64,000 nt of DNA from Alphaproteobacteria bacterium UBA830 (GTDB lineage: Bacteria > Pseudomonadota > Alphaproteobacteria > MPNO01 > UBA830): the NCBI GenBank assembly GCA_002295635.1, contig DBHK01000027.1:5920-69919 (forward strand). Direction: 5' to 3'. This document shows, one piece after another, positions 1,700 to 28,695 of this stretch. Made by a program: the position numbers and the translations under genes. The notes beneath the pieces are model-generated. The model was not told where the DNA came from and ran no database searches. It saw only the letters and a list, made by a program, of their open reading frames with translations. The stretch's first letter is position 1, and every line of letters begins with the position of its first letter.

Positions 1700-1781
1700 T
1701 TGGACAAATCCAGTCGTTTACAGCTATGCACTATTATAAATTCACCGCAGCAAGATATTGCCTATGAGCGGGATAAGAACT

Positions 1782-6748: not shown

Positions 6749-7462
6749 TTACGAATTCTTAGTAGCGCGACGGCACCAGACTTCCCAAGCCCGATCAAGA
6801 CTAATCGGCGCCTGCTGCATACTCGTACACTCCTCGATTTCGATATCCGTAAGGAAGTCAGGCTCGCCAATCATCATGGTTTGAAGTTGTAGTTTAGCGT
6901 TTACCTGCAGATAAATTGCCTTCATCACTGTCTCTTCTACAGTGGCTCCCGTCACGACACAGCCGTGGCGTTTCATCAATGCGATCATACCGCTTCCTAG
7001 TGAAGCCGCCAGGTCTCGGCCCTGTTCCATGGTTACGACAAGATGGTTGGTTTCACCGAATTTATCGCGCATATCCCATACCGGGATGTTCTTTCCGATG
7101 GGGGCGCAAGTGTGTGTGACCGGGCGGAGCGGCGTGCCAGTTGAGGCAAAGGGGATCACTTCGTACGAATGATTATGAATTACCACGTTTACATCTGGCC
7201 GCTGCTCATAAATTGCCCCATGGATCATTCGCTCGCTATAAGGCCGTCGGTCGCCGGCATCGATGGCTTCGCCGTCTAGCCGATAAGTGACTATATCGTC
7301 TGTCTCTATTAGTTCCGGCGCCCGGGCACGCGACAGGAGATATTTCTCCCGATCGCCGGGGTGTCGAAAGCTAATGTGGCCGTATGCGTCAACTACTTCT
7401 TCGTGCGCAAGTATGTGATTGGCGACGACGATATTGTTTAACGTTCCGGCGTCTACATTCAT
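6749..7462 (-). CDS. Class II aldolase/adducin-family protein
   Basis: Start at MNVDAGTLNN. HNHS motif and overall fuculose-phosphate-aldolase-like layout. Confidence 0.8.
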   Translation of the reverse strand: MNVDAGTLNNIVVANHILAHEEVVDAYGHISFRHPGDREKYLLSRARAPELIETDDIVTYRLDGEAIDAGDRRPYSERMIHGAIYEQRPDVNVVIHNHSYEVIPFASTGTPLRPVTHTCAPIGKNIPVWDMRDKFGETNHLVVTMEQGRDLAASLGSGMIALMKRHGCVVTGATVEETVMKAIYLQVNAKLQLQTMMIGEPDFLTDIEIEECTSMQQAPISLDRAWEVWCRRATKNS

Positions 7463-7542
7463 GCGTTGTCCTTTGTTCACACTTGGGCCTTTATGGCCAA
7501 GAAGAGAAATTACAGCGATCGAAATCCCGGTATGGCCCAATA

Positions 7543-7573
7543 CGGCGGGCTGGCATTTTTATGCCGCCCGCCG
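7543..7573 (-). terminator. GC-rich hairpin downstream of the peroxiredoxin-like selenoprotein gene (candidate terminator, weak U-tract)
   Basis: On the minus-strand transcript: CGGCGGGCGGCAU-AAAAA-UGCCAGCCCGCCG, followed only by UAUU. Confidence 0.35.
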
Positions 7574-7581
7574 GATCAGAA

Positions 7582-8049
7582 TCAGCGGGATTCGTAGAAA
7601 TTGATAAGTTTGACCACGTCTTCAGCCTGCATACGACCCAATGGGCCGTCACAGTAGCTAGATGCGATAACATTGTTATCAGGGCCGAGTATAAATTCGG
7701 ACGGCTGGATGATCTGACGGCGGTCCTCCCACCAAGATCCCAAAGCGTCCGCCATATCACGACTTACACCTTCGCCAACAGGGAAGTTAACTTCGTCAGC
7801 GACCTGACTCGATTCTTCTCCCGTGTCGATACTTGCTGCGACGACAGATACACCAATCTTATCTAGTTCTGCCTTTTGGTCTGAAAAGCCGACTAACTGT
7901 CGGCGACAGTAGGGTCACCAATGACCCCGGTAAAATAGAATAACCTTATATTTTGTATCGAGGCCTCTTGGAAGGTCCATCGAACCACCCCCGACAAGAC
8001 CGAGCGTCATGTCGGGGAATGCGTCGCCTATACCAAGTTTATCGGGCAT
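7582..8049 (-). CDS. Peroxiredoxin-like (AhpC/TSA/redoxin thioredoxin-fold) SELENOPROTEIN; in-frame UGA (7915-7917) decoded as Sec in a GHW-U-PYC redox motif
   Basis: AAGGAGG lies 5 nt upstream of the ATG at 8047-8049. The translation is MPDKLGIGDAFPDMTLGLVGGGSMDLPRGLDTKYKVILFYRGHW[U]PYCRRQLVGFSDQKAELDKIGVSVVAASIDTGEESSQVADEVNFPVGEGVSRDMADALGSWWEDRRQIIQPSEFILGPDNNVIASSYCDGPLGRMQAEDVVKLINFYESR, ending at the stop at 7582-7584. The UGA sits at the position of the N-terminal Cys of the W-C-P-x-C motif in Cys homologues. A hairpin follows 10 nt downstream. Confidence 0.8.
7888..7904 (-). promoter_or_regulatory. Candidate bacterial SECIS hairpin for the peroxiredoxin-like selenoprotein
   Basis: GCCGAC-AGUUA-GUCGGC (6-bp stem, G/U-containing loop) starts 10 nt 3' of the UGA. 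The palindrome CUGUCGCCGACAG overlaps it. Confidence 0.5.
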
Positions 8050-8175
8050 ACGTCCTCCTTTTTGTCAAATAATCGCGGCAAGTTTATACTTTAATAGCCA
8101 AACTATGCATGGTGGTGTTTTCCAAAGCAACGACATAGCTGGATGTCGCCAGTTAATTTTTCTTAATGCGGGATA

Positions 8176-9315
8176 TTACTCAGCTGCCGAGTTTATCCCA
8201 ATACTGTCCAGTATCTCCTTCTGCCGGCCAAATTCATCAATACCAATTTCTTTTCGAAGATCGGCACTCATCTCCGCTTTGTCGGCTTCCAATGGCGCAC
8301 CTGTAGCATCGGCCACACGATCGATGGCGTTGAAAAGAGCGGCTACGCCCGCAGAGTCAACTACTGCGTCGGGACCAAGGGCCTTAAGGATTTCCTGCCG
8401 GGCATTGGTAAGGCGAGGCCTATCTTCGCCGAGGATGGCCTCGGCGAATTCAATCATAAGTTCGCCGTATTCAATTCCGGTATTTCCCGCATCGGCGCCG
8501 CCGGTGATGGCATTATAGTCGAGATTGTTTCCAGAGTATTCGCTGCCCGCACGGAGCAGTACCGAGTGGCTAGTCGTTCAATAAGTACATTGATTGAGCG
8601 CCGATACTCGCGCTGCCAGCAATTCGATCTGCAGATGTGTGATTGCGCGAAACTCCTGAGTAAAATCTCGCATCTCGGGGCCGCTTAGATACTGCGCTGC
8701 GACCACGTCAAAGAACCCACGCGCCTCATCAGGTACTAAGGTAAGGGCTCGACGAATATTAGACTCCGGCCCTACAAAGTAATCTGCCTCATTCGGGCCA
8801 TATTCGTCCCAAGCTATGTTAGGTGACCACGCTTGGTGCTGACGTGCCTCAGCCGGGCGATAGTACGAAGGTTCACCGCTCTGGGCTTCTGGCAAAGCGC
8901 GGACTGGCACACCGATCCCATTAGCGAAGGTATCGATCGCGGTAGTATGAGCCACTATGCTGACGATTTCGACGAAGTGCGTTTCCAGAATACCGCTATC
9001 GATGGTTTTCTTGTACCACGTTTGTGTCAAACGACCTGGGTCCGCAACGATCAGATGGATCATATTTACCCAATTTTGGGGTAGGTCAGTCCCGGAATCG
9101 AAGGGTTCGGTAATAGAAAATGGTGATAGTGCTTCCCTGATTTTTGCGTAGCCGGGACAGTCCCGAGCGTGGCGCGCCTCCGCCATCACTTTGAGACGCT
9201 CCTCGCCTGTTAGCCAATTTCCCGCTTTAGATAATCTATCCCAAGCGCGTTGATGGGCTTCGACAATGTCTTCTCGAACGGAATAAGGCGAGTCATCGTA
9301 ATTGATGTTTGACAT
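8176..9315 (-). CDS. AhpD-like / carboxymuconolactone-decarboxylase-family SELENOPROTEIN; UGA at 8578-8580 read as Sec joins ORFs 8578..9315 and 8176..8457
   Basis: The upstream ORF ends ...RVSALNQCTY-TGA. Downstream the same frame is open with no stop for 134 codons, through the track ORF 8176..8457. The motif spanning the UGA is C-T-Y-U-T-T-S-H, which matches the AhpD catalytic C-x-x-C-x-x-x-H exactly. The downstream part carries the CMD C-terminal helix AALFNAIDRVADATG. Confidence 0.65.
8543..8559 (-). promoter_or_regulatory. Possible SECIS-like hairpin for the AhpD-like selenoprotein
   Basis: CUGCUC-CGUGC-GGGCAG (6-bp stem including one G-U pair, GU-containing loop) starts 18 nt 3' of the UGA. 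Confidence 0.3.
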
Positions 9316-9386
9316 GACGTATCTCCACTTCGGAAACGTACCTTATTTTGGTCGACCTCTAGGGTCAAACGTGATCCTAAGATACT

Positions 9387-10382
9387 CTATAGCCCGAATA
9401 ACGCACTTGGGTTTTTCTCGACGATAATTTCTATATCTCTATTACTGAAGCCTGCATCGCGCAGGGTCTTCATCGGATGTGGGTCGCCGGGTGGGAAGGG
9501 GAGGTCGCTACCGAGGAGGATGCGGTCTAAACCCACTAAATCACCTAGATAGTTAAGCGCTCGTCCATCATGCAAGATGGTGTCGTAGTGGAAATGCTTC
9601 AGGTATTGAGAAGGTGGTTTAATCGCTACATTGCCGGTGATCCGTCCGTCTGACGCATGATGCATGCGATCAAAACGGCCGATAAGAAATGGTATTGAGC
9701 CGCCCCCATGTGACAGGATAATTTCTAGTTCTGGAAAACGATCTAATACGCCTGCGGCTATCATTGAGCCAACGGTAAGTGTCGTATCATTGGTGTATGC
9801 GACAATTTGATTAAGGGCAAATTTCCCTGCTCGCGCAGGTGCGATTGGCTGGGCAGGGTGGATAAAAACCGGAGCCTTAAGCTCGACGCAAGTAGCCCAA
9901 TATTCATCAAGTTCGCACTCGCCTAAGTTTTTTCCATCAACATGGGCTGCGATAATCGCACCGACCGCGCCGGCTTTAATACCGCGTTCTAACTCGCGTG
10001 AGGCTGCGGCTGCATCCTGTAGCGCGCCGGAAGCCAGCCAAGAGAAATGGTCTGGATAAGTATTGCAAAGCCGTGTCATGCTATCATTTAACGCGGCGTG
10101 CCAGAGTATGCCCTTTTCGGCAGGTAAATCGTATCCAAAGATGTCTGTCCAGATACTGAGTATCTCACGATCTACGCCCTGTAGGTCCATTTCTTCGAGC
10201 CGGTGATCTGCGTTCGTCAGAGTATCGAAGAAAGGACGGACCTGCATACCACTTTCGAAACGACAACAATGGCACCCGGGTTCTGTCTCAAGCAGATCAA
10301 TACCGAAGTCTTTTCCTCGGGCGGAGAGCGTCTCTATCACGTCCGGGGGGACTAAGTGCGCGTGTACGTCAATTACGTTCAT
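9387..10382 (-). CDS. Amidohydrolase_2 (ACMSD/LigW-like metal-dependent hydrolase/decarboxylase)
   Basis: Start at MNVIDVHAHLVPP (HxH metal motif), 20 bp after the stop of the molybdenum hydroxylase large subunit. Confidence 0.8.
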   Translation of the reverse strand: MNVIDVHAHLVPPDVIETLSARGKDFGIDLLETEPGCHCCRFESGMQVRPFFDTLTNADHRLEEMDLQGVDREILSIWTDIFGYDLPAEKGILWHAALNDSMTRLCNTYPDHFSWLASGALQDAAAASRELERGIKAGAVGAIIAAHVDGKNLGECELDEYWATCVELKAPVFIHPAQPIAPARAGKFALNQIVAYTNDTTLTVGSMIAAGVLDRFPELEIILSHGGGSIPFLIGRFDRMHHASDGRITGNVAIKPPSQYLKHFHYDTILHDGRALNYLGDLVGLDRILLGSDLPFPPGDPHPMKTLRDAGFSNRDIEIIVEKNPSALFGL

Positions 10383-10401
10383 GATCGGACGTCTCCTAGT
10401 T

Positions 10402-12690
10402 TCAATTTCCGTTATCCCGCAATGCATTGCGGAGTCGATCAGGTGTAATAGGCAACTCTTTTATGGAGATACCGTGCGGACGAAGCGCCCGGGAAACCGC
10501 ATTGCTAACGGCGGCGGCAACGGCGACGATCCCGCCTTCACCTGCTCCCTTGAACCCCATCGGATTGAACTCTGATGGTGAATCCTCTAGCGCGATAGCT
10601 GTGATCTCCGGTAATTCAGACGTGGTTGGCAATAGGTAGTCTGCAAAGCTACCGGTCAGAAGCTGACCGTCAGTGTCATAGATAAAATGATCGAGGAACG
10701 TACCACCCAAGCCCTGGACTACGCCGCCAACCGCCTGACCCTGCACCAAAGCGGGATTGAGTGCCCGTCCAATCTCTTCAGTTAGCCAGTACCGTTCGAC
10801 CTCAACGACACCGGTTTCAATATCTACCGCGACCTGTGCCGCATGGGCGCCGTATGAATATGAGATACGTTTTTCATTATCAAAAATAGCATCGGCGGCC
10901 AGGGTTTCGCCCCGGTGTTCCGAGAAAGACGCTAGTTCCTGCAAGCTCAGTCTTTCGTTATATCTATACACTGCACCATCGCTATAACGCAGGTTTTCCG
11001 GGTCGCAGTTCCAGCGCAGCGCTGCAATGCCTACAGCATGGTCTTTCAGTAAATCGGCAGCGATACGCGTTGCATTGCCGGCCATTACAGTATTACGGCT
11101 GTGGAAAGTGCCACCGCCTGTTTTCACCAGCGTCGTGCTGCCGTGGAGAACCTGAACACGGGCGATATCAATATCTAGGTAATCAGCGCAAATCTGTGCA
11201 AGCCCTGTCTCGGTTCCCTGACCAACTGATGAAGCACCGGTACGAATGGTCACTGTGCCGTCTGACGTTGCGGTTATGTTTGCTGACTCCGGTGGTCCGG
11301 CGGCACTACTTTCGATAAAACATGCAATACCGAGGGCGCGAGCCCGACCATCCGAGTCTGGGACGTTGGTGGGCCAGTCCGTGTATCGGCATTCCTTCAA
11401 AAGCCGGTCTAGAGCAGCAGGATAATCGCCCTTATCCAACGTTGCCTCAGTGTCTCCCGGAACGAGCTCACCTATTTTGTATGGCAGATCCGCCGGGGTC
11501 ATCAGATTGCGTCGGCGCAGTTCTGCTGGATCGAGGTCTAGATCATCCGCCATCAGGTCTAAGAGACGTTCGCGGCAGAAATTAGCTTCAAAGCGACCCG
11601 GACCGCGGAATGTGCCCACTGGGGTTTTGTTGGTGATCAAAAACTGCACATCGCAGCTAAAAGAAGGTACCCGATATGGGCCTGGAAGAAACTGTGCGGC
11701 CTTCGACGGTACTACACCGCCATTGGTTCGAACATAGGCTCCCATGTCGCCCCGAACTGTTCCCCGCATACCGAGGATTTCGCCTGTCGCCGTCGCGGCT
11801 ATTTCAAGATCGCAGATGATATCGCGCGAATGGTTGGTTGCGGTCAGGTTTTCTCGCCGATCCTCGATCCATTTTACTGGACGTTCTGTACGCCTACTTG
11901 CAAGAGGAACCAGATAGTCCTCCGGATACAGTTCGCCGCGAGCACCGAAGCCGCCGCCTACATCCGTCTCGATTAGCTCGACGGAACTTTCAGGCATGTC
12001 AAACGCTTCTGCCAGATGCCGGCGATTGAAGAAATTAACCTTTGTGGCACCATGCAATCGTAATAAGGGTTTAGAGATATCGAATTCCGCGATCAGGCCG
12101 CGTGTCTCCATCGGTACGGCGCCGTGACGGTTGGTGATGAAGCGTTCATGCCGGGTATAGGCAGCCCCGTCGAACGCCTCTTTGGTGTTGCCGCGGCTAA
12201 CGGTGTAACGGGTTCCCATATTTTCGCCCGCTGCTTCGTGGATCAATATTTGTCCATCGAAAGCTTGATCAACGGTGGTCACAGCTGACAGCGGGTCAAA
12301 CTCGATCTCGATCAGTTCTAGAGCATCTTCTGCAACATAGCGGTCCTCAGCAATTACGACGGCAATTGGCTCACCTACATATCGCACTTTGTTGACCGCA
12401 ATCGGACATTGCAGAAATCTCTCGAAGCCGTCAAATGGAGCTAGCCTAAGAGGAATAGTCGGCAAATCATTCTCCATATCCGCAGCGCAGAATACGTCGA
12501 TTACCCCTTCAAGCGCACGCGCCGTATCGAGATTGATAGTCTTTATAAGAGCGTGAGCATGGGGACTGCGTAACACTGCCATAATTGCCATACCAGGCAG
12601 TTTGACGTCGTCAATATAGATACCCTCTCCAGTTAGTAAGCGTTGATCTTCCAGCCGCGAAACGGACTTTCCTATATATCTCCGGCTCAA
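10402..12690 (-). CDS. Xanthine dehydrogenase-family molybdopterin-binding large subunit (CoxL/CutL homologue, not a bona fide CO dehydrogenase)
   Basis: 762 aa. N-terminal a/b hammerhead and molybdopterin-binding domains. The active-site loop reads GTFRGPGRFEANF rather than the CoxL form I/II signatures. Confidence 0.85.
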   Translation of the reverse strand: MSRRYIGKSVSRLEDQRLLTGEGIYIDDVKLPGMAIMAVLRSPHAHALIKTINLDTARALEGVIDVFCAADMENDLPTIPLRLAPFDGFERFLQCPIAVNKVRYVGEPIAVVIAEDRYVAEDALELIEIEFDPLSAVTTVDQAFDGQILIHEAAGENMGTRYTVSRGNTKEAFDGAAYTRHERFITNRHGAVPMETRGLIAEFDISKPLLRLHGATKVNFFNRRHLAEAFDMPESSVELIETDVGGGFGARGELYPEDYLVPLASRRTERPVKWIEDRRENLTATNHSRDIICDLEIAATATGEILGMRGTVRGDMGAYVRTNGGVVPSKAAQFLPGPYRVPSFSCDVQFLITNKTPVGTFRGPGRFEANFCRERLLDLMADDLDLDPAELRRRNLMTPADLPYKIGELVPGDTEATLDKGDYPAALDRLLKECRYTDWPTNVPDSDGRARALGIACFIESSAAGPPESANITATSDGTVTIRTGASSVGQGTETGLAQICADYLDIDIARVQVLHGSTTLVKTGGGTFHSRNTVMAGNATRIAADLLKDHAVGIAALRWNCDPENLRYSDGAVYRYNERLSLQELASFSEHRGETLAADAIFDNEKRISYSYGAHAAQVAVDIETGVVEVERYWLTEEIGRALNPALVQGQAVGGVVQGLGGTFLDHFIYDTDGQLLTGSFADYLLPTTSELPEITAIALEDSPSEFNPMGFKGAGEGGIVAVAAAVSNAVSRALRPHGISIKELPITPDRLRNALRDNGN

Positions 12691-13175
12691 ATTGATACCC
12701 CGCCGCTGCGGCGTGCCGCCGCGTCCATAATTGCGTCAACAATTGATACGTACCCCGTACATCGGCAAATATTCCCAGAAATCGCACTTTCGACTTCGGC
12801 ACGGGTTGGTGTCGGGTTCTCGCCTAGGAAAGCTTCCGCAGTCGTTAACATCCCTGGAGTGCAGAAACCGCACTGCAGCGCATGGTTGTCGCGAAACGCC
12901 TCTTGAAGTGGAGACAGGTTCTCACCTTCGGCGAGACCTTCTACTGTTGTGATATCCATTTTGTGGGCTTGGACCGCAAAAATCAGACAAGACCGTATTG
13001 CCGCTCCATCAGCTATTACGGTGCAGGCGCCACACACGCCGTGTTCGCATCCCAGGTGTGTGCCCGTAAGATCTAGTTGTTCGCGCAGGCAATCGGCCAG
13101 TGACATGCGGGCGTCGACATCGCAGCTATACGAGGTGCCGTTTACTTTTAGAGATATGGCATGGCGGTTTGTCAC
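12687..13175 (-). CDS. (2Fe-2S)-binding small subunit of the molybdenum hydroxylase
   Basis: 162 aa. CEHGVCGACTV and CGFCTPGM cluster motifs. 4-bp overlap with the large subunit. Confidence 0.9.
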   Translation of the reverse strand: MTNRHAISLKVNGTSYSCDVDARMSLADCLREQLDLTGTHLGCEHGVCGACTVIADGAAIRSCLIFAVQAHKMDITTVEGLAEGENLSPLQEAFRDNHALQCGFCTPGMLTTAEAFLGENPTPTRAEVESAISGNICRCTGYVSIVDAIMDAAARRSGGVSI

Positions 13176-14041
13176 AGATTACGTTTCCAGGCTTCAGAGA
13201 GAGTTCGCTTTAGGAGGACTGCGGAAACTTCGCGCCGATATGCGATAGAGGCATGGATATCGTCGAATGGATCAATATCGGCATCAATGGTATCTGCGGA
13301 TTCTTTGAATAGGCCGAGGGAGGGTTCAGATCCCATTAGGGTGTTTTCCGCTCTGTGAAGACGAAGCGGTGTATCACCTGCCCCTATTGCTACGCATGCG
13401 CAGTTGGATATGGCGCCGCCGTCATTGATGTCAAACCAAGCTGCGACGCCCACTAGGGCAAAGTCGCCTTCCCGGCGGGAGATTTCTTTGAATCCCCAGT
13501 GACGTTGTGTCGGCCAGGGTGGAAAACAGATTTTTTCGATCAACTCACTACTGTCAGCGGCTGTCGTAAAAACGCCTTGAAAAAAGTCGACTGCAGGAAC
13601 AACCCGAGGGCCGGCCGGTCCGCGTAGGTGAATTTTTGCTTCACAAACTAAAGTAATTCCCGGCAATTCGGCTGCTGGATCCGCGTGAGCGACACTGCCA
13701 CCCAATGTGCCTCGGTTTCGGATTTGGAAATGAGCAATATGGGCTGCGGCTGCGGCCAGCAAGGGATTGTTCTTTTCGATGTCAGGATCTGTTTCAAGCC
13801 GGCGGGTACGTACCATGGGGCCGATTTCTAGGCCGCCATCTGGGCTTATCCGGATATCTGCGAGCTCGGAAACACCGTTAAGGTCAATAAGCGCGGACGG
13901 TGAAGCGACACGAAAGTTCATCATCGGTACGAGGCTTTGTCCGCCCGCAAGATATCGGGCGTCCTCACCATTCTCCCGCATCATAGCGATTGCGCCATCG
14001 ACACTATCTGCAGCAAAGTAGTTGAACTTAGATGGTTTCAT
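13172..14041 (-). CDS. FAD-binding medium subunit of the molybdenum hydroxylase (CoxM-like)
   Basis: 289 aa. FAD-binding region (YLAGGQSLVPMMNFRVASP). 4-bp overlap with the small subunit. Confidence 0.85.
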   Translation of the reverse strand: MKPSKFNYFAADSVDGAIAMMRENGEDARYLAGGQSLVPMMNFRVASPSALIDLNGVSELADIRISPDGGLEIGPMVRTRRLETDPDIEKNNPLLAAAAAHIAHFQIRNRGTLGGSVAHADPAAELPGITLVCEAKIHLRGPAGPRVVPAVDFFQGVFTTAADSSELIEKICFPPWPTQRHWGFKEISRREGDFALVGVAAWFDINDGGAISNCACVAIGAGDTPLRLHRAENTLMGSEPSLGLFKESADTIDADIDPFDDIHASIAYRREVSAVLLKRTLSEAWKRNL

Positions 14042-17187: not shown

Positions 17188-17332
17188 ACTCGTGCACTCC
17201 TATTTTTGTTGTATGAGCGTACCCGACTAATACGCTTGTATACAGACTTTATGATTGGAAGACTGACGTCCAGAGCTGTCTCCAAAGTGAATTTCTTCTA
17301 TGAATTTTCGTATTCGAAAACAGCCTGATTTA

Positions 17333-17428
17333 TGGCGGAAAAGAGTGGGAGTCGAACCCACCAGGGACGTCTAACGCCCCTCACCGGTTTTGAAGACCGG
17401 GCGCCCCACCGGGGAACGAATCTCTTCC
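17333..17428 (-). tRNA. selC: tRNA-Sec (anticodon UCA)
   Basis: 96 nt: GGAAGAGAUUCGUUCCCCGGUGGGGCGCCCGGUCUUCAAAACCGGUGAGGGGCGUUAGACGUCCCUGGUGGGUUCGACUCCCACUCUUUUCCGCCA. It has an 8-bp acceptor stem, a UCA anticodon in a CUUCAAA loop, a long variable arm and a GGUUCGACUCC T-arm. Its architecture is near-identical to E. coli selC. Confidence 0.85.
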
Positions 17429-17533
17429 GACGGTATACATGCATAGCAAATTCCTATGTTGGGTGACATGCCTATTGTACCAAATTCATTTTCTTCTAAA
17501 GAAACGACTTTTACCAATCTCTGAAGTTTGGCT

Positions 17534-19459
17534 TCAGTCTTTGTTGAAAGCCTCCTCTGCAGGACGGATTATCTCATGCCCGTCGCCTACGCGGCGGGTG
17601 AATTTGACCTTGTCAAAGAATTCTAAAACCTCGATAGATAGGTTCCGGCCTATTCCCGACGCGTCGCGAAAATTTGCTGCGGTCACCATGCCTTCGTCTG
17701 CGGATGCTGCCACTTTTTCCGCGATCTCGCCTAGCTGGCGCAGGGCATCTGGCTGATAAAATCGGTTTTTTGCTATTCGAATAACGAGACCGTGACGTCC
17801 TGCTCGAACCAGCAGAGACTCGATTTTACTAGGCTCTTTGTCGATTGCTTGCGCGATCTCAACAATAACTGGCGGTCGCAGTCCCCCATTGACTAGAAGC
17901 GGTTTTATTTTATTCCAATTCGAGGCGTCGGCCCCTTGCAGTTTTGGCTTATGCGACAGTAGCCGCACGCCCATACCTTCTTTGACTATGACACCTTCAC
18001 GCACCAGCTCAGCACAAATAGAAGCCGTCGCGTTGCCGGGTAGACGAAGACCTGTGCCCACCAGGATACGGTTCTCGCCAGGTCCAACCGTGTCGGGAGA
18101 TTTTTTATGCCAGGCGCCAAGAGCCTCTAAAACCGCGGTACGGAGGATGTCCCAGCGGTTATGGGAGAAACCTAGCAAGCCTTTCTCGGTTGATATCGAT
18201 TTAATTGGAACAAGCTCTTGTAGAGCCTCCATGTCGGAGTCGGTTAGATTGCGTGCTGAAGCGAAGCGGTCGAGGAAGAGACCTTCGGGTGAGGTTTCCA
18301 GCAAGGCAGTCAGTGCGATACCATCGTCTCCCTCCTCCATCGCTTTTAAGAAAGCTATACGCTCAGGTCTGGCCCGTCCTCGCGCAGGTGGGTAGACGTC
18401 TATGACGCGGCCGCCACCTATCGTTCGTTGCGCAGACTGATCACGAATTATTAACCCGTCACTATGAACCGCGGCCATAGGATGATCGAGTACAAGTTGC
18501 GCGAGCTTATTTTCGCCCGCCGCTATACTTTGCTCTCCAAGAATAGCGACCCGTCCGGTGGACTCTGATGCGCCGAGATGGACATGAACCGGGGTCCAGT
18601 GAGCAAGCGGCCGAGCTTCTGACTGAAGAACCTGAAGCCTTACATCTATTTTTCTTACTGCCGGAGGCGGATGGCCGGTAACGATCCAGTCGCCGCGCTG
18701 TATCAGCCGACTGTCGAGATCCGGCCCTGTAAGATTTAGCGCACAGCGTTGACCTGCGTGTCCGGCGTCGGTTTTTGCATTTTGCGCATGAAGGCCGCGC
18801 ACTCTAACGTCGATCTCTGCACCCAAGACCCGGGCGCCTGCGCCGGTTTTCAGATGACCGGAAAAGGCGGTGCCAGTAACCACAAGCCCTGCGCCGGTAA
18901 CCGCAAAGCATCGGTCGATGGCGAGCCGGAAATTTCCTGTCGACGCGCGTGGTGGCATCTGGGCTGCTGCATCGATGAGGTGTTGTTTTAAATCACTGAT
19001 CCCTTCGCCAGTTAGTCCAGATAGCGGGAAAACGGGAGCTCCATCTAGCGATGTACCGAGTAAAAGCTCGTCAATCTGCTCGGATACCTCGACGGCGCGC
19101 ATATCATCAACCCGGTCGATTTTGGTTAGGGCTACCGCGCCATCTGAAACGCCGAGCAAGTCGAGGATTGCTAGGTGTTCTCTGGTTTGCGGCATCGGTC
19201 CGTCGTCAGCGGCGACAGTGAGTAACGCGAAGTCGATACCGACTACGCCACATAACATATTACGAATAAATTTTTCGTGTCCGGGGACGTCTATAAACCC
19301 GATAGTTTCCGCTCCATCTATCGGAAGATAGGCGAAGCCAAGATCGATGGTCAGATTACGTTTCTTTTCTTCAGGCAGCCGATCGGTATCAACCCCGGTC
19401 AACGATTTTATTAGGAGGGTTTTACCGTGATCAACGTGGCCGGCTGTAGCAACAATCAT
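17534..19459 (-). CDS. selB: Selenocysteine-specific translation elongation factor SelB
   Basis: 641 aa. N-terminal MIVATAGHVDHGKTLLIKSLTGVDTDRLPEEKKRNLTIDLGFAY with GTPase G motifs. Long C-terminal winged-helix region. ATGA overlap with selA. Confidence 0.9.
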   Translation of the reverse strand: MIVATAGHVDHGKTLLIKSLTGVDTDRLPEEKKRNLTIDLGFAYLPIDGAETIGFIDVPGHEKFIRNMLCGVVGIDFALLTVAADDGPMPQTREHLAILDLLGVSDGAVALTKIDRVDDMRAVEVSEQIDELLLGTSLDGAPVFPLSGLTGEGISDLKQHLIDAAAQMPPRASTGNFRLAIDRCFAVTGAGLVVTGTAFSGHLKTGAGARVLGAEIDVRVRGLHAQNAKTDAGHAGQRCALNLTGPDLDSRLIQRGDWIVTGHPPPAVRKIDVRLQVLQSEARPLAHWTPVHVHLGASESTGRVAILGEQSIAAGENKLAQLVLDHPMAAVHSDGLIIRDQSAQRTIGGGRVIDVYPPARGRARPERIAFLKAMEEGDDGIALTALLETSPEGLFLDRFASARNLTDSDMEALQELVPIKSISTEKGLLGFSHNRWDILRTAVLEALGAWHKKSPDTVGPGENRILVGTGLRLPGNATASICAELVREGVIVKEGMGVRLLSHKPKLQGADASNWNKIKPLLVNGGLRPPVIVEIAQAIDKEPSKIESLLVRAGRHGLVIRIAKNRFYQPDALRQLGEIAEKVAASADEGMVTAANFRDASGIGRNLSIEVLEFFDKVKFTRRVGDGHEIIRPAEEAFNKD

Positions 19460-20859
19460 TCGAGAATTTCAAGAGTTGAAAGTTGTGAAAGGAATCCGGG
19501 TTCATCTGCCATACAGCGTAGATCAACGATGAAGGCACCTCCCTGAACGCGTCCAATAACTGGCACTGGCAGACCGCGAAAGGCCCGTACGAGTCGTTCA
19601 ACTGCCGCACCGTTCTTAGTTTCAGGAGTGATTGCGAGGCCCGCGCTAGGAAGTTTGCGGGTCGGTAATGTACCCGAACCGACTTGGCTGTCGCAGTCCA
19701 CCTCTTCGACTTTGGCAAACCCTTTTACGGCTCTAGAGATTGCAGGCCGAATCCGGGAGGCTGTTTCCTGAATATCAGTCACTGACCGGGTAAGCGCACG
19801 CAGCGTGGGCAATCGGTCGGATAGACTATCTGGATCGGAATAAAGACGAAGCACGGCGGATAACGCTGCGATAGTCATTTTGTCACAGCGTAGTGCTCGT
19901 TTTATGGGGTTGCTCTTTAAACGAGTGATGCAGTCTTTGGTACCAACGATGATACCTGCCTGCGGTCCACCCAATAGCTTGTCACCCGAAAATGATACCA
20001 TATCGGCACCGTGCTTTAGGGCTTCCATTGGAGTTGGTTCATGTGGAAGTCCAAGCCGCTTTAGTTCCGTCAGAGTGCCGCTGCCCAGATCGATGGCAAA
20101 TGGAATTCCAGTCTCATGACACAGCTTGGCGAGATCAGTTTCCGGCACCTCCGCGGTGAATCCTTCTACTACATAGTTACTGGTATGGACCTTCATGATC
20201 ATTCCGGTATTCGGTCCGATAGCTGCGGCATAATCCTTTAAATGGGTCCGGTTGGTGGTGCCAACCTCGACCAGTTCACATCCTGACTGTGCCATAATAT
20301 CCGGCATACGGAACGAACCCCCGATCTCTATTAACTCTCCTCGAGATGTAGGTGTTTCCTTACCAAGTGCGAAGGTATTGAGGATCAACATAACTGCCGC
20401 GGCATTATTATTGACGACGGTTGCCGCCTCAGCACCGGTGATTTCACAAAGCTGTGCCTCGACATGGTCATCCCGGTCTCCGCGCTTTCCTTCTTCCAAA
20501 CTATACTCGAGGTTGGTTGCGCTGCGCGCCGCCCGGGAGATGGCTTCAATAGCTTCCTCCGGAAGCGCCGCGCGACCCAAGTTCGTATGAATGACCGTTC
20601 CTGTTAGATTATAGACTGGTCGGAGAGACGGCAAATTCTCCTGCGCCAGACACTCCGCCACTGCATACAATATCTCTGTTTCGTGCGGTATCTTGTTACC
20701 GGAAAGCACAGAACCGCGAATTTCTTCTAGCGTCTTTCGGATGCAATCCGTTACTAATTTGCGGCCATATTCCGAAATCAGCTTCACGGCATTATCCGAA
20801 TTCAACAGGCGATCAACAGACGACAGGCCCGCAAGAGGCGAAGAGGTTTTCTTTGGCAT
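19456..20859 (-). CDS. selA: L-seryl-tRNA(Sec) selenium transferase SelA
   Basis: PLP-dependent. LAGLSSVDRLLNSDNAVKLISEYGRKLVTD aligns with the E. coli SelA N-terminus. Start placed at MPKKTSS. An alternative upstream start at 20937 would abut the prfC stop. Confidence 0.85.
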   Translation of the reverse strand: MPKKTSSPLAGLSSVDRLLNSDNAVKLISEYGRKLVTDCIRKTLEEIRGSVLSGNKIPHETEILYAVAECLAQENLPSLRPVYNLTGTVIHTNLGRAALPEEAIEAISRAARSATNLEYSLEEGKRGDRDDHVEAQLCEITGAEAATVVNNNAAAVMLILNTFALGKETPTSRGELIEIGGSFRMPDIMAQSGCELVEVGTTNRTHLKDYAAAIGPNTGMIMKVHTSNYVVEGFTAEVPETDLAKLCHETGIPFAIDLGSGTLTELKRLGLPHEPTPMEALKHGADMVSFSGDKLLGGPQAGIIVGTKDCITRLKSNPIKRALRCDKMTIAALSAVLRLYSDPDSLSDRLPTLRALTRSVTDIQETASRIRPAISRAVKGFAKVEEVDCDSQVGSGTLPTRKLPSAGLAITPETKNGAAVERLVRAFRGLPVPVIGRVQGGAFIVDLRCMADEPGFLSQLSTLEILE

Positions 20860-20938
20860 GACCGTGAGACAATACTGCTTGAAACGGTGTTGGGAAATGT
20901 CTTGTTGAAACGTGGTAGCAGGGAGAATACCAAACACC

Positions 20939-22543
20939 CTATTGTGTCTGTTCCTTGGTCTTCAGAAATTTGATGTCAGGCCACTCTTTCACAGCGTTGT
21001 CTAAATGCCACGTGTTTCGGGCGAGGAAAACCGGCATTGAGTCATGATCATCTGCGATGGAACTGCCATTGTTATCTAGGAATTTTTTCAGAAGACTGGT
21101 ATCGTTTGCTTCAACCCAGCGCGCAGTATGGAGAGAGGTTGCCTCAAACTTTACCGGTACATCGTATTCCGAACGTATACGGTCTGCCATAACATCAAAT
21201 TGAAGCGCTCCTAAGACACCGACGATCCAGTCCGTTCCGATGCGTGGCTTAAATACCCGGGCCACGCCTTCTTCTGCCAATTGTTGTAGCGCTCGGCCAA
21301 GATGTTTGGCACGCATCGGATCCGCCGGATGTACCGAGCGCAGTATTTCAGGTGCGAAGCTTGGGATGCCTGTGAAGCGCAATTCTTCACCATCTGTCAA
21401 AGCATCACCGATCCGCAGATTTCCATGATTTGGGATGCCAATGATGTCACCTGCATATGCATCTTCAGCGGTCTCCCGATCCTGCGCGAGGAATAACATC
21501 GGGTTGTGCAAATTTATTTGTTTACCACTTCGAATATGACGCAGCTTCATGCCTCTCTTGAAATGTCCCGATGATAGTCGAAAGAATGCAATTCGGTCGC
21601 GATGCTTTGGATCCATGTTCGCCTGAATCTTGAATACGAAACCACTGACTTTGTTTTCCTCAGGGTCGACGACACGCTCTTTTGCATTTTGTGGACGTGG
21701 GGGTGGTGCGAGGGACACAAGACCTTTCAGCAATTCTCGGACACCAAAATTATTAATAGCACTGCCGAAGAATACTGGGCTGAGCGAGCCGTCACGATAG
21801 GACTGTAAATCGAGTGGTGGGCAAAGGCCGGTCGCCATCGGTACCTCTTCGCGAAGCTTTTCTACTGCATGACCGGGTAATAGAGCGTCGAGTTTTGGAT
21901 CGTCGACGCCCTCACATATAATATCCTCACCAGGATCATTCGAGATCTTGCCGCTAGCGTGACCTTTTTTCATCAGCACCACCCTGCCGTCAATCACGTC
22001 GTAACAGCCGAGAAAATCCCGTCCCATACCGATCGGCCAGCTTGCAGGCGTTACATCAAGGGCGAGTGTTTCCTCGATTTCTTGTAACAGTTCGAATGGT
22101 TCCTGTGCCTCTCGATCCATCTTATTAATAAAGGTGATGATCGGCATATCCCTCAAGCGACAGACTTCGAACAGTTTCCGAGTCTGTGCTTCGATCCCAC
22201 GTGCTGCATCTATCACCATTACTGCCGAGTCGACAGCTGAAAGTGTCCGGTATGTATCTTCCGAAAAGTCTTCGTGACCAGGTGTATCCAGTAGGTTGAA
22301 GGTGCAGCCGCCAAATTCATATGTCATAACAGATGATGCTACCGAGATGCCCCTTTCTGCCTCGACTTTCATCCAGTCGGAATGTGCGCGCCTAGCCTCG
22401 CCCCGCGCCTTAACGGCACCGGCAGTCTGAATTGCTCCACCGAACAACAAAAGTTTCTCGGTCAGAGTCGTTTTACCCGCATCCGGGTGGGAGATAATGG
22501 CGAATGTTCGCCGGGCGGCAATTTCGCCGCTGTTTATGCCCAT
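20939..22543 (-). CDS. prfC: Peptide chain release factor 3 (RF3)
   Basis: RRTFAIISHPDAGKTTLTEKLLLFGGAIQTAG ... FKIQANMDPKHRDRIAFFR, closely matching E. coli RF3. Start trimmed to MGINSGEIAARR. Confidence 0.9.
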   Translation of the reverse strand: MGINSGEIAARRTFAIISHPDAGKTTLTEKLLLFGGAIQTAGAVKARGEARRAHSDWMKVEAERGISVASSVMTYEFGGCTFNLLDTPGHEDFSEDTYRTLSAVDSAVMVIDAARGIEAQTRKLFEVCRLRDMPIITFINKMDREAQEPFELLQEIEETLALDVTPASWPIGMGRDFLGCYDVIDGRVVLMKKGHASGKISNDPGEDIICEGVDDPKLDALLPGHAVEKLREEVPMATGLCPPLDLQSYRDGSLSPVFFGSAINNFGVRELLKGLVSLAPPPRPQNAKERVVDPEENKVSGFVFKIQANMDPKHRDRIAFFRLSSGHFKRGMKLRHIRSGKQINLHNPMLFLAQDRETAEDAYAGDIIGIPNHGNLRIGDALTDGEELRFTGIPSFAPEILRSVHPADPMRAKHLGRALQQLAEEGVARVFKPRIGTDWIVGVLGALQFDVMADRIRSEYDVPVKFEATSLHTARWVEANDTSLLKKFLDNNGSSIADDHDSMPVFLARNTWHLDNAVKEWPDIKFLKTKEQTQ

Positions 22544-22698
22544 TGATGAGTCCAAAAAACTTTTTAGCACTATCCGCGCCGACTCGATGCAATATAAGGC
22601 TGTTTTATCGTAATTCCAGTACAGCTTGCCTGTCGCCATGCTAATCTCTGGCGTTTAGGATAGGTGGGAAGGATGGCAAAAATAGGGAGGGCGGGTCG

Positions 22699-24009
22699 AT
22701 GGAAATGCAGACCGCCACCAAGGTTGGTTACCAGTCTGGTTTCGGAAATGAATTTGCGACCGAAGCACTACCCGGTGCATTACCGGAGGGTCGGAATTCT
22801 CCACAGAAAACGCCGTACGGCCTTTATACGGAACTGATCAGCGGTACAGCCTTTACACAGCCTCGTAACGATAATCTACGGACTTGGCTCTACCGGATAC
22901 GGCCATCGTCTCAGCACGGAAAATTCAAGAAGATTGATAAAAAATTATGGCGCACCCCTACCTTTGATGAAGGAGTGTTGACGCCACAGCAAATACGTTG
23001 GGATCCAATACCTATCCCGGCGGAAGCAACAGATTTGATCGCCGGCATAAAGACCTTGGCGGGTAATGGAGATTCTAAAATCCAATCGGGGATCGGTATC
23101 CACGTTTATTGCGCAAACGTCTCGATGAGTGATCGCTATTTCTACAATGCCGATGGGGAGATGCTGTTCGTTCCCCAGCAGGGCTGCTTGCGACTCGTAA
23201 CAGAAATGGGTGTAGTTGAGGTGGTGCCAGGCCAGATTGCAGTGGTGCCCCGAGGGATAAGATTCTGCGTCGGCCTACCAAATGGGCCATCGCGCGGTTA
23301 TGTATGCGAAAACTTTGGAGCGCCCCTACGACTACCCGATCTCGGACCTATCGGATCTAATGGTCTTGCCAATCCCCGGGATTTTCTTGCACCGGTAGCG
23401 TCGTTTGAAGATCTTGATGGTGATTTTGAACTTGTCGTAAAATTTGGGGGAGATCTCTGGGCTTCTGATATCGACCATTCGCCTTTAGATGTCGTTGCAT
23501 GGCACGGAAATTTGACACCATATAAGTATGATCTCGATAATTTCATGTCTATCGGGTCTATATCCTTCGATCACCCAGACCCGTCTATCTTCACTGTGCT
23601 TACGTCTCCATCTGGCCCGGCAGGGCTGGCCAATGTAGACTTCGTCATTTTTCCGCCACGGTGGCTGGTTGCGGAAAATACCTTCCGGCCACCCTGGTAT
23701 CACCGCAACTTTATGTCGGAATTCATGGGATTGGTGCACGGTCATTACGACGCCAAAGAGGAGGGCTTTGTGCCTGGGGGGGCCAGCTTACACAATATGC
23801 ATTCCGCTCACGGACCTGATCGAGAGACCTATGAAAAGGCGACAAAGTCTGATTTGAAACCGATGCATTTAGCAGACACGATGGCTTTTATGTTTGAGAC
23901 CCGCTATCCGATCAAGTTGACGGAATGGGGTGCGAATGTCCCCCAGATCCAACCGGATTATCAAGATTGCTGGCAAGGACTAAGTAAAAACTTCGACGGG
24001 AAAAGATAA
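22699..24009 (+). CDS. hmgA: Homogentisate 1,2-dioxygenase
   Basis: 436 aa. The N-terminal [19 protein letters not shown] motif is diagnostic of homogentisate 1,2-dioxygenase. Confidence 0.9.
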
Positions 24010-24011
24010 TA

Positions 24012-25334
24012 ATGACGATTCTTAATGAAACCCACGACCCTGCGCTTAATAGCTGGGTTAATAGCGCAAATGAGAATGGCTCCGACTTTCCAGTACAGAA
24101 TCTACCCTTTGGCGTGTACACGGACCCTCAAACTGATGCGGGCAAAATAGGTATTGCCATTGGCGATATGATTTTAGATGTAACGGCCGCCCGGATAGAG
24201 GGCCTAATCAGCGGCGCTGCAGATGATGCTGCGGGGGCCTGTGCCGGCGATACCCTTAACCATTTGATGGCGCTGGGTGGTCGGCACTGGTCGGCGCTGC
24301 GCGCGGCCGCATCTAAAGTATTGCGAAACGATACGGATGAGGGCGAGATCGCTAGAACGGTCGCCGAGGATATTCTTGTTTCTCAGTCCGATGTTGCAAT
24401 GCAACTACCGGCTCGGATAGGAGATTATACCGATTTCTATTCATCGATCTTTCATGCGACTAATGTCGGAAAAATGCTCCGGCCGGATAATCCGTTAATG
24501 CCGAATTATAAATATATCCCTGTTGCTTACCATAGCCGGGCGTCGTCGATTGTTCCAAGCGGCGAAGTATGTAAGCGCCCAGTAGGTCAAACCAAGGCGG
24601 CGGATTTGGATGCACCTTCCTTTGGCCCTTCGAGGGCGATCGATTACGAGACTGAGATCGGGTTTTTCATCGGCCCTGGCAATCCGCTGGGCCAGCCTAT
24701 CGATATATCCGAGGCAGAAGATCATATTTTCGGCCTATGTATCTTGAACGATTGGTCCGCTCGAGACATACAAGCATGGGAATACCAGCCTCTAGGGCCA
24801 TTTCTTGCCAAAAGCTTCTCGTCGCATATATCGCCTTGGGTGGTGACGATGGAGGCCTTATCGCCGTTCCGTTGTGCTGCTTATGAGCGTCCGGAATCCG
24901 ACCCCAACCCGTTACCTTACCTATCGTCAGCAGAGAATGAGACTAAAGGTGGATTCGATGTCCACATCGAAGTATCGATCGCATCGGAACAGATGCGGGA
25001 TGCCGGCATGAGTCCCCATCTTTTGGCGAAGACCAACATGCGTCATCTTTATTGGAATGTTTTCCAAATGTTAGTTCACCATACCTCTAACGGATGCAAC
25101 ACGCGGCCCGGTGACATGATGGGGACCGGAACGATATCGGGGCCGAATAAGGATTCTCTTGGATCGATCTTGGAAATCACCAAGCGTGGTTCTGAGCCGG
25201 TGCCTTTACCATCCGGCGAGGAGCGCAAATTCCTTGCCGATGGCGATGAGGTGATCATGCGGGCCTGGTGCGAGGCCGAGGGGTCGCGGCGAATCGGATT
25301 CGGCGATTGCCGCGGATTAATTGAGGGTGCTTAG
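24012..25334 (+). CDS. fahA: Fumarylacetoacetase
   Basis: 440 aa. N-terminal FAA-hydrolase domain (FPVQNLPFGVY) followed by the catalytic FAH domain. Placed immediately downstream of hmgA. Confidence 0.9.
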   Translation: MTILNETHDPALNSWVNSANENGSDFPVQNLPFGVYTDPQTDAGKIGIAIGDMILDVTAARIEGLISGAADDAAGACAGDTLNHLMALGGRHWSALRAAASKVLRNDTDEGEIARTVAEDILVSQSDVAMQLPARIGDYTDFYSSIFHATNVGKMLRPDNPLMPNYKYIPVAYHSRASSIVPSGEVCKRPVGQTKAADLDAPSFGPSRAIDYETEIGFFIGPGNPLGQPIDISEAEDHIFGLCILNDWSARDIQAWEYQPLGPFLAKSFSSHISPWVVTMEALSPFRCAAYERPESDPNPLPYLSSAENETKGGFDVHIEVSIASEQMRDAGMSPHLLAKTNMRHLYWNVFQMLVHHTSNGCNTRPGDMMGTGTISGPNKDSLGSILEITKRGSEPVPLPSGEERKFLADGDEVIMRAWCEAEGSRRIGFGDCRGLIEGA

Positions 25335-25806: not shown

Positions 25807-25898
25807 GGATGAGCCCTTAGGAAAATTCTTATCTACCGGTTATGGGGTAGTGCTCACCTGTATGTTAGTCTTTGCGCCATCGAACAATGGGGATCTAT

Positions 25899-28211
25899 AT
25901 GATCGGAGAACGGATAAAACGCATCGAAGATCCAGCGCTATTGCGCGGTGCAGCTATTTTCGTGGACGACATACATTTACCGGGAATGCTGCACGTAGCA
26001 TTCCTGCGTAGCCCCCATCCGCATGCAAAGATCCAATCGATCGATGCAAGGGCGGCGAATGCAATGTCCGGTGTTAAAGCAGTATATACGCTGGCCGACT
26101 TATCGCCGCATTTGCAAATGGATCGTCTTCCCCTCCAATTCCCAACAACAGCATTCCGCCCTGATGTAACCCCCTGGGTACTGGCGGGTGAAGAGGTGTG
26201 CCATGTTGGAGAGGCCATCGCTATGGTTGTTGCCGATACACGTTACATTGCGGAAGACGCGGTAACAGTGATTGAGGTGGACTACGACCCGCTACCGTCC
26301 GTCGCAGGCTGTGCAGCGGCGTTCTTGGAAGATGCCCCACGGGTGCATGATGATCAGGATGACAATGTTTTGCTGCGGTTCGGGCAATCCTACGGTAATG
26401 CTAGCGCGGCATTCGCAAATGCACCTCATGTCTTTTGCGAACGCTTTATACAGCACCGGGGCGCTGCTCATCCGATAGAGGGACGCGGCGCGGTGGCGCG
26501 CTACGATGTCTTGAATGATTCCACAACATTGTGGTCGTCAACCCAGATGTCGCATGAAGTAAGGTCGGCAATAGTCCAAATGTTTGGGGTAGATGAAGGG
26601 CGTATCCGAGTTGTTGCACCGGATGTCGGCGGTGGTTTCGGGTCAAAATTTATTGCTTATTCGGAAGAAGTCTTGATTGCGCTGGCCGCTCGCCTTCTGG
26701 ACACCCCAATAAAATGGATTGAGGACAGGCGTGAACATTTTACATCAGCGATCCAAGAGCGTGAACAGGACTGGACGATGGAAATCGCCGTTGATGATGA
26801 AGGCCGTATTCTCGGCGTACGCGGTTCCATGCTGTCAGACCAAGGCGCGTATACCCCACAAGGTGTAAATATGGCGTATAATGCGTCGACTGGGGTGCCT
26901 GGCCCCTACATAGTGCCAAACTACGAAATTGATGTGCATGTTATTGAGACTAACGCGGTCGCGGCGGCGCCGGTAAGAGGCGCTGGCTATCCTGAGGGTA
27001 ATTATACGATGGAGCGCCTTCTGGACCGTGTAGCACAAGGGCTTGACCTTGATCGAGCAGAAATCAGGCGGCGTAATCTAATCCCTGCGGAGAAGATGCC
27101 TTACGAAACACCTCTAAAGACCCGTGCCGGGTCGCCGGTGATGGCTGACAGTGGCGATTTTTTGAAATGCCAACAGATCGCGTTAGATCGCATTGACTAT
27201 GCTGGATTTTCAAAACGCCAGATAGCGGCGCGTATGGAGGGAAGGTATCTCGGTATTGGTCTTGCAAACAGCCTGAAAGGAACAGGGCGCGGACCTTTCG
27301 AGTCCGGAGCTGTCCGGATTGAGCGGTCTGGAAAAGTGCGGGTATTTACCGGCGCGCTTGCGATGGGGCAGGGGCTAAAAACCATGCTTGCGCAGGTGAC
27401 ATCTGAGCAGCTCGGTATTCCGGCAGACGAAATAGAAGTTATAGCCGGAGATACCGGCACGATTGCACTTGGGCTTGGCGGATTTGCTAGCCGCCAGACC
27501 GTCACGGCTGGATCATCAGTCCATGGTGCAGCTAAAGAGGTCCGCGGAAAGCTACTAAAAATGGCAGCGCATTTATTGGAAGCTGCCGAAGAAGATCTAG
27601 AGATTTCCGACAGCGTTGTTCGGGTAATCGGCTCAGATGTAAATATATCGGTCCGGGAAATAGCGGAAGCTAGCTCTGGTGCACCAGGATATTCTATGCC
27701 TGGCGGTATCGAACCAGGTCTTGAGGCATCGGAAAACTTCAAGCCGCCAGCTTTGACCTATAGTAACGGAGTACAGGCGGTCGAGGTTGAAGTGGACATT
27801 GGTACCGGCGAGGTCAGGTTTTTGAATTACGTCGTAGTTAGCGATTGCGGGACGTTGATCAACCCCATGATAGTTGATGGACAGATCGCCGGCGGGGTGG
27901 TCCATGGAATAGGTAACGCGTTGTTCGAATGGATGGGTTATGATGATAGTGGGCAACCGCTTACCACAAATTTTGGTGAGTACACCATGCCTACCGCTAC
28001 TGAGCTTATCGAACTAGATTTACAGTATCAGCATTCGCCGACACCGTTGAACCCGCTTGGCGTGAAGGGTGTGGGAGAGACTGGGACGGTGCCGGCTGCT
28101 GCTGCCATCGTGTCAGCTGTTGAAAATGCGCTAGAGCCATTTGGAGCACGGATTACCGATTATCCGGTTATGCCCTCATCGATCGTGAACATCGTGCGAG
28201 CGGCCGGATGA
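25899..28211 (+). CDS. Xanthine dehydrogenase-family molybdopterin-binding large subunit (orphan; no adjacent small/medium subunits)
   Basis: Start at MIGERIKRIEDPALLRG, by alignment with the first large-subunit gene. Molybdopterin-binding domains are present, including the PVRGAGYPEG loop. Confidence 0.85.
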   Translation: MIGERIKRIEDPALLRGAAIFVDDIHLPGMLHVAFLRSPHPHAKIQSIDARAANAMSGVKAVYTLADLSPHLQMDRLPLQFPTTAFRPDVTPWVLAGEEVCHVGEAIAMVVADTRYIAEDAVTVIEVDYDPLPSVAGCAAAFLEDAPRVHDDQDDNVLLRFGQSYGNASAAFANAPHVFCERFIQHRGAAHPIEGRGAVARYDVLNDSTTLWSSTQMSHEVRSAIVQMFGVDEGRIRVVAPDVGGGFGSKFIAYSEEVLIALAARLLDTPIKWIEDRREHFTSAIQEREQDWTMEIAVDDEGRILGVRGSMLSDQGAYTPQGVNMAYNASTGVPGPYIVPNYEIDVHVIETNAVAAAPVRGAGYPEGNYTMERLLDRVAQGLDLDRAEIRRRNLIPAEKMPYETPLKTRAGSPVMADSGDFLKCQQIALDRIDYAGFSKRQIAARMEGRYLGIGLANSLKGTGRGPFESGAVRIERSGKVRVFTGALAMGQGLKTMLAQVTSEQLGIPADEIEVIAGDTGTIALGLGGFASRQTVTAGSSVHGAAKEVRGKLLKMAAHLLEAAEEDLEISDSVVRVIGSDVNISVREIAEASSGAPGYSMPGGIEPGLEASENFKPPALTYSNGVQAVEVEVDIGTGEVRFLNYVVVSDCGTLINPMIVDGQIAGGVVHGIGNALFEWMGYDDSGQPLTTNFGEYTMPTATELIELDLQYQHSPTPLNPLGVKGVGETGTVPAAAAIVSAVENALEPFGARITDYPVMPSSIVNIVRAAG

Positions 28212-28608: not shown

Positions 28609-28695
28609 GCGGACGTGGTGGAATTGGTATACACAACAGACTTAAAATCTGTCGGTCGCAAGGCCATGCGGGTTCAAGTCCCGCCGTCCGCACCA
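28609..28695 (+). tRNA. tRNA-Leu (anticodon UAA)
   Basis: GCGGACGUGGUGGAAUUGGUAUACACAACAGACUUAAAAUCUGUCGGUCGCAAGGCCAUGCGGGUUCAAGUCCCGCCGUCCGCACCA. Long variable arm, 7-bp acceptor stem, GGUUCAAGUCC T-arm, encoded CCA. Confidence 0.9.

Follow-up and report, generated by a model that had tools for sequence, protein, structure and literature searches.

In E. coli, the gene for selenocysteine tRNA (tRNA-Sec), selC, stands apart from selAB. Bacterial tRNA-Sec has an 8+5 architecture (Santesmasses et al. 2017, Secmarker, PMC5330540), with 7-bp acceptor stems and 12-bp acceptor/T variants in some alpha- and gammaproteobacteria, whereas in tRNA-Ser the helix is 7+5, the D stem has 3–4 bp and the D loop is large (PMC5330540). 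In the crystal structure of A. aeolicus tRNA-Sec, the D stem and the anticodon stem each have 6 bp and one bulged nucleotide, C11a and U43a, respectively, and the D loop has 4 nt; bulges of this kind are common among bacterial tRNA-Sec (Itoh et al. 2013, PMC3711452). Among the selenoproteins that such tRNAs serve, the AhpD-like (CxxU) and Prx-like 1 (UxxC) families are long-known marine ones (Zhang and Gladyshev 2008, PMC2398784).

Here, we describe a selC gene in a 64-kb stretch of DNA (the window, meaning the whole stretch analysed) and compare it with these systems. We conclude with high confidence that it is a functional bacterial tRNA-Sec gene, placed at the end of a selA–selB–selC cluster in an uncultured marine alphaproteobacterium (Table 1). 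The gene is of an already known kind, an ordinary member of a textbook family; standard tRNA finders detect it at once, and it holds nothing to surprise a specialist in selenocysteine decoding; an identical tRNA sequence already exists in a public metagenome-assembled genome (MAG). Its importance is for annotation quality only: selA, selB and selC together mark the genome as a selenocysteine user, so that in-frame TGA codons need checking, and such checking rescues two genes, for an AhpD-related and a Prx-like selenoprotein, which an ORF caller splits or truncates while leaving spurious ORFs on the opposite strand.

Table 1. Positions of the selenocysteine genes, their flanking gene and spacer, the client genes and the second tRNA gene within the window.
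Feature	Position	Strand	Evidence
Prx-like (AhpC/TSA fold) selenoprotein, 155 codons	7582..8049	minus	translation, Pfam AhpC-TSA
AhpD-related (seleno)protein, 379 codons	8176..9315	minus	read-through translation, NF041238
selC, tRNA-Sec gene, 96 nt including encoded CCA, anticodon UCA, 8/5 fold	17333..17428	minus	ARAGORN, RF01852, MFE cloverleaf, covariation
selB–selC spacer, 105 nt	17429..17533	minus	spacer alignment and upstream sequences of 55 loci
selB, selenocysteine-specific elongation factor, 641 aa	17534..19459	minus	TIGR00475, 425.5 bits (cutoff 242), full length
selA, L-seryl-tRNA(Sec) selenium transferase, 493 aa, GTG start	19456..20937	minus	TIGR00474, 580.5 bits (cutoff 268)
prfC (RF3)	20939..22639	minus	NF001964, 742 bits
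tRNA-Leu(UAA), ordinary	28609..28695	plus	ARAGORN, Rfam 63.3 bits

Read on the minus strand, the selC gene is GGAAGAGAUUCGUUCCCCGGUGGGGCGCCCGGUCUUCAAAACCGGUGAGGGGCGUUAGACGUCCCUGGUGGGUUCGACUCCCACUCUUUUCCGCCA. ARAGORN called a tRNA-SeC with anticodon tca (at position 36) and placed both ends exactly as in Table 1. Infernal matched the Rfam tRNA-Sec family RF01852 at 17428..17337 over model positions 1–91 of 91, scoring 75.7 bits (E 9.8e-14) against a gathering score of 47; the general tRNA model also overlapped here but was outcompeted by RF01852 within the tRNA clan. The tRNA-Sec score thus stood above its threshold, with no other isotype ahead of it.

At minimum free energy, the sequence folded into an 8/5 cloverleaf whose variable arm is long. 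Its energy was only modestly better than that of shuffled sequences (z = −2.05), and we therefore place the weight on the covariance model and on covariation among relatives.

A sequence-only reading of this DNA had described an 8-bp acceptor stem with one G–U pair, a CUUCAAA anticodon loop with UCA, a long variable arm and a T-arm, and had called the architecture E. coli selC-like, with a 5′ half of near-identical layout; all of its statements about the sequence were borne out, although it had left the strand, minus, unsaid. Its remark that ORF-based annotation misses the gene holds trivially for every tRNA. The acceptor stem pairs GGAAGAGA with UCUUUUCC (G1–A8 with U85–C92, including G5.U88) and is followed by the discriminator G93, equivalent to G73, and a gene-encoded CCA. 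G93, C94 and C95 were invariant across the 46 aligned tRNA-Sec sequences described below. U9 and U10 link the acceptor stem to a D arm of the form CGU(U)CCC-CGGU-GGGGCG, in which six pairs (C11–G27, G12–C26, U13–G25, C15–G24, C16–G23 and C17–G22) leave U14 bulged and close a 4-nt loop, CGGU.

The anticodon stem likewise has six pairs, C28–G47 and C29–G45 through U33–A41, with U46 bulged and a 7-nt loop in which ARAGORN and the Rfam match agreed on UCA. A version with C28 paired to U46, giving a 5-bp stem and a C.U mismatch, was rejected, as that pair failed in 37 of 40 sequences; C28–G47 with U46 bulged was paired in 39 of the 40, and we dropped the former because the re-pairing agrees with the A. 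aeolicus structure. The variable arm is an 8-bp stem, AGGGGCGU/ACGUCCCU (A48–U55 with A59–U66), within the 6–9 bp of this stem in bacterial tRNA-Sec, with a 3-nt loop, and is followed by the linker G67. The T arm, GUGGG-UUCGACU-CCCAC, pairs G68–G72 with C80–C84 around a UUCGACU loop. The acceptor and T stems together make a helix of 13 bp (8 + 5).

For comparison with E. coli, we used a selC sequence that matched annotated tRNA-Sec at 100% in E. coli genomes. The two genes had 69 of 96 aligned columns in common. Shared features were an acceptor stem of 8 bp that begins with GGAAG, the CGGU loop on a D stem of 6 bp, the CUUCAAA anticodon loop, a long variable arm, UUCGACU on a 5-bp T stem, and G73 with an encoded CCA. 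E. coli selC has 95 nt, and the window tRNA is one nucleotide longer, with an extra U bulged out on the 5′ side of the D stem.

Features in common with the A. aeolicus tRNA were the 8+5 fold, the UU acceptor–D linker, six pairs in the D stem with one bulge (flipped out in the crystal), a D loop of 4 nt, an anticodon stem of 6 bp that is closed by C:G and has a bulged U (U43a) on its 3′ side, and a lone linker G following the variable arm. The variable stem has 8 bp in the window tRNA versus 9 bp in A. aeolicus. The D-stem bulge also differs in place, lying after the third pair in the window tRNA, where the fold is a predicted one, and at C11a in A. aeolicus; its position shifts among the relatives of the window tRNA.

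At the junction of the acceptor and T stems, three successive pairs (acceptor pair 8 and T-stem pairs 1 and 2) read A–U, G–C and U–A in the window tRNA and C–G, G.U and C–G in E. coli. The E. coli trio is reportedly (Rudinger et al. 1996) the antideterminant by which its tRNA-Sec avoids EF-Tu. Rejection of the window tRNA by EF-Tu is thus something that we assume. Could the gene instead encode another tRNA with a long variable arm, a UGA suppressor derived from tRNA-Ser or an allo-tRNA, that inserts serine or a different residue at UGA by way of EF-Tu? Failure to conserve the antideterminant pairs in sequence would suit such a tRNA, as would the long variable arm and G73, which are as in tRNA-Ser. 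Yet the Sec-specific model outscored the general tRNA model with its 75.7 bits, the 13-bp 8+5 helix and the D arm, with its 6-bp stem and 4-nt loop, are specific to tRNA-Sec when set against tRNA-Ser (PMC5330540), and the gene directly follows selA and selB in 54 related loci. We consider a suppressor or allo-tRNA hardly credible, and tRNA-Sec remains the reading that we follow.

The comparison set consisted of 80 loci encoding SelB relatives (numbered with the prefix L), drawn from a collection of genomes at species level. Of the 80, 55 had a tRNA-Sec according to ARAGORN, and in 54 selC came after selB on the same strand, with a gap of 11–108 nt in 47 of those 54, so that the arrangement and spacing in the window are typical. 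An alignment of 46 tRNA-Sec sequences, 40 of them distinct, was built from 44 related loci, the window and E. coli selC. Across the 40 distinct sequences, the 8/5 structure placed standard pairs in 96.9% of cells; when the 3′ partners were slid by 1–3 columns, paired cells fell to 46–59%. Both sides had changed in a compensatory manner in 22 of 33 pairs, and none of 500 column shuffles reached any of five pairing measures.

The support extended over the separate helices. Among relatives, the acceptor helix was 93.7% paired and the T helix 100%, both with compensatory changes; the D helix was 97.9% paired, with both-side changes in three of its six pairs; and compensatory changes were seen in seven of the eight variable-stem pairs. 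Acceptor pair 8 was non-standard in 15 of the 40 distinct sequences (related loci L034–L065 and others; for example, G.G in L034), leaving a 7-bp acceptor stem that resembles the short-stem variants described previously (PMC5330540). The window tRNA keeps the canonical 8 bp, with A–U at this pair.

The best SelB match was 79% identical, and all close matches were from MAGs of uncultured marine Alphaproteobacteria. The window tRNA was 100% identical to that of MAG UBA7314 (L002), where SelB is 75% identical, and 98–99% identical to the tRNAs of L001, L003, L005 and L017, where SelB is 71–79% identical. That the tRNAs are nearly identical despite this divergence of SelB indicates strong purifying selection on the selC tRNA.

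The proteins encoded upstream were both full-length equivalog matches. SelB carries the Pfam domains GTP_EFTU, Beta-barrel_SelB and SelB-wing_3, and the selA product matched Pfam SelA with 529.5 bits; the two genes overlap by 4 nt at the selB start. Unlike E. coli selC, the window gene follows selB, which ends 105 nt before the 5′ end of the tRNA in the same orientation, as the sequence-only reading had put it.

prfC ends one nucleotide before the selA start codon, completing a tight prfC–selA–selB–selC array; in this, the window clade differs from the selABC clusters known across bacteria (PMC5330540), as RF3 abuts the upstream side of selA. prfC also adjoins selA in L002 and L005, and 1–3.8 kb is inserted between the two genes in L001 and L007; no prfC match was found in the available sequence upstream of selA in the remaining related loci. 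With prfC near selA in only a few related loci, the linkage is clade-specific and probably incidental. In L001, the 3.8-kb insert holds two large ORFs on the opposite strand that by eye resemble indolepyruvate-oxidoreductase subunits.

How selC is transcribed was approached through the spacer and flanks. A consensus scan of the minus strand around the tRNA found no sigma-70-like promoter, and no canonical intrinsic terminator was found there. Just upstream of the tRNA lies a block, GGAATTTGCTATGCAT (17454..17439), common to the closest relatives, which could be part of a promoter (a −10 element) or a signal for processing. Where relatives have a conserved TATGCA or TATGTA, the window carries TAGGCA. 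Inspection by eye showed a TTGAC(G/A) box in L001, L002 and L005, a candidate for part of a dedicated sigma-70 promoter in the spacer, but the box is 23–24 nt from TATGCA/TATGTA, which is too far. The spacer is only 11–30 nt long in many relatives, suggesting co-transcription with selAB or a promoter located within selB. In the window, selC could accordingly be transcribed with selAB, or could have a dedicated promoter in its 105-nt spacer.

Downstream of the tRNA, an imperfect, long, G.U-rich hairpin (17271..17327, minus) starts 6 nt past the CCA, and the fold of the 149-nt downstream sequence gave z = −2.25. The hairpin is not a canonical intrinsic terminator because no U-run follows it.

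The genes beyond (alpha/beta hydrolase, SDR, amidase and Mo-hydroxylase subunits) are syntenic with those of L001, L002 and L005. Insertions of about 2.5–3 kb lie between selC and the alpha/beta-hydrolase gene in L003 (8048..10994) and L017 (about 8049..10513); the one in L003, which alone was inspected, carries no integrase, and its large ORFs run on the opposite strand and are repeat-rich (cadherin/RTX-like). Neither this insert nor the one between prfC and selA in L001 affects the reading of selC.

In enterobacteria, selC is a known integration site for islands. The idea that the window sequence is a tRNA-derived attachment-site remnant of an integrated element, or a chance tRNA-like fold, draws on that precedent and on the insertions just after selC in L003 and L017, but it has to contend with a full-length gene where a mere 3′ fragment would be expected, with the downstream synteny, and with the lack of any integrase among the Pfam-scanned ORFs of the window. 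A search of the 64-kb window for a second copy of the 3′ 30 nt of selC, allowing up to three mismatches, found none. Shared synteny and an unduplicated 3′ end led us to reject selC as an island attachment site, and nothing suggests an island here; a chance match is excluded by the Rfam E-value of 9.8e-14. We give a remnant or a chance fold a negligible probability.

Six-frame scans of the window for frames interrupted by a single TGA, and for CxxU- or UxxC-type motifs, yielded only two convincing TGA-interrupted genes; a further candidate at 46677 (minus) is unlikely. The two genes neighbour each other on the minus strand, some 9 kb away from selC, and in both the TGA takes the place of a redox cysteine. 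In the first, AhpD-related gene, the UGA (8580..8578) is codon 246, within the motif NQCTY-U-TTSH (CxxU). With U read as Cys, the product matched NF041238, ‘alkylhydroperoxidase-related (seleno)protein’, with 437.1 bits (cutoff 175) over residues 13–363, a match that spans the UGA; the motif is CTYUT in the window versus CFYUT in the name of the model. In the second, Prx-like gene, the UGA (7917..7915) is codon 45, within GHW-U-PYC (UxxC), and is spanned by a Pfam AhpC-TSA match of 69.7 bits over residues 7–128. Both share their motifs, folds and marine setting with the AhpD-like and Prx-like 1 families, from which they differ in nothing substantive.

The TGA was conserved at the aligned codon in all homologues from related loci, six of six for the AhpD-related protein (44–65% identity) and three of three for the Prx-like protein (61–64% identity), with protein similarity on both sides of the TGA in all nine. 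As the codon is kept in all nine, the tRNA has client genes in the window. At the Prx-like UGA, a 6-bp hairpin, GCCGAC-AGUUA-GUCGGC, begins 13 nt downstream of the first base of the codon; the AhpD-related UGA has a hairpin too, beginning 21 nt downstream of its first base. These are plausible distances for SECIS elements, and the hairpins are energetically not distinctive (z = −1.7 and +0.4).

ORF callers report only fragments of the two TGA-split client genes. Three plus-strand ORFs of 105–169 aa, 7384..7866, 8009..8518 and 17439..17756, lie opposite the clients or the 3′ end of selB and the spacer. The first two had no Pfam match, and all three are probably shadow ORFs that can be called in place of the real genes.

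Conservation of the clients also bears on whether selC is a silent or decaying relic, a tRNA-Sec by descent in an organism that no longer uses selenocysteine. Such a state would agree with the lack of a recognisable promoter or terminator, and with the absence of selD from the Pfam and NCBIfam matches of about 50 ORFs in the 64-kb window. It is difficult to square with client genes that both keep open frames on either side of a conserved TGA, with full-length selA and selB, with five intact helices plus G73 and CCA, or with a tRNA identical to that of a relative despite 25% SelB divergence, which suggests purifying selection. We regard a relic as very unlikely; selC is very probably in use by the organism.

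One or both client genes were found within about 6 kb of selB in 9 of the 80 related loci, directly after selC in L006 and L008. We entertain, as an improbable but not fanciful idea, that selA–selB–selC and the AhpD-related and Prx-like clients form a recurrent ‘selenium redox module’, co-inherited or co-transferred in this marine lineage and its neighbours. Were this true, the abutment of prfC on selA could be functional and not accidental. RF3 acts in termination alongside RF2, and RF2 is the competitor at UGA.

Charging, conversion and delivery by SelB can be inferred from the established bacterial selenocysteine pathway (Bock and co-workers; Itoh et al. 2013). On that model, the transcript would be trimmed to a 96-nt tRNA, which SerRS would charge with serine, guided by the long variable arm and G73. 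SelA, whose gene lies two genes upstream, would recognise the 6-bp D stem with its 4-nt loop and convert Ser-tRNA(Sec) to Sec-tRNA(Sec), with selenophosphate supplied by SelD. SelB, encoded immediately upstream, is predicted to take the place of EF-Tu by binding the 13-bp (8+5) acceptor/T helix and to bring the tRNA to those UGA codons that have an mRNA hairpin (SECIS) after them. Its targets would include at least two genes in the window, those for the AhpD-related CxxU protein and the Prx-like UxxC protein.

Besides selC, the only RNA-family match in the window was the tRNA-Leu(UAA) gene. At one end of the window, neither strand of 1..1781 had a convincing complete ORF in a listing of ORFs that do not cross the window ends, and this segment may hold a truncated gene. 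Genes for aromatic and heterocycle catabolism, none with an in-frame TGA, occupy 10402..14041 (minus), 22699..25334 (plus) and 25872..28211 (plus). They include two genes for molybdenum-hydroxylase large subunits, one with adjacent genes for 2Fe-2S and FAD subunits, and the homogentisate pathway genes hmgA and fumarylacetoacetase.
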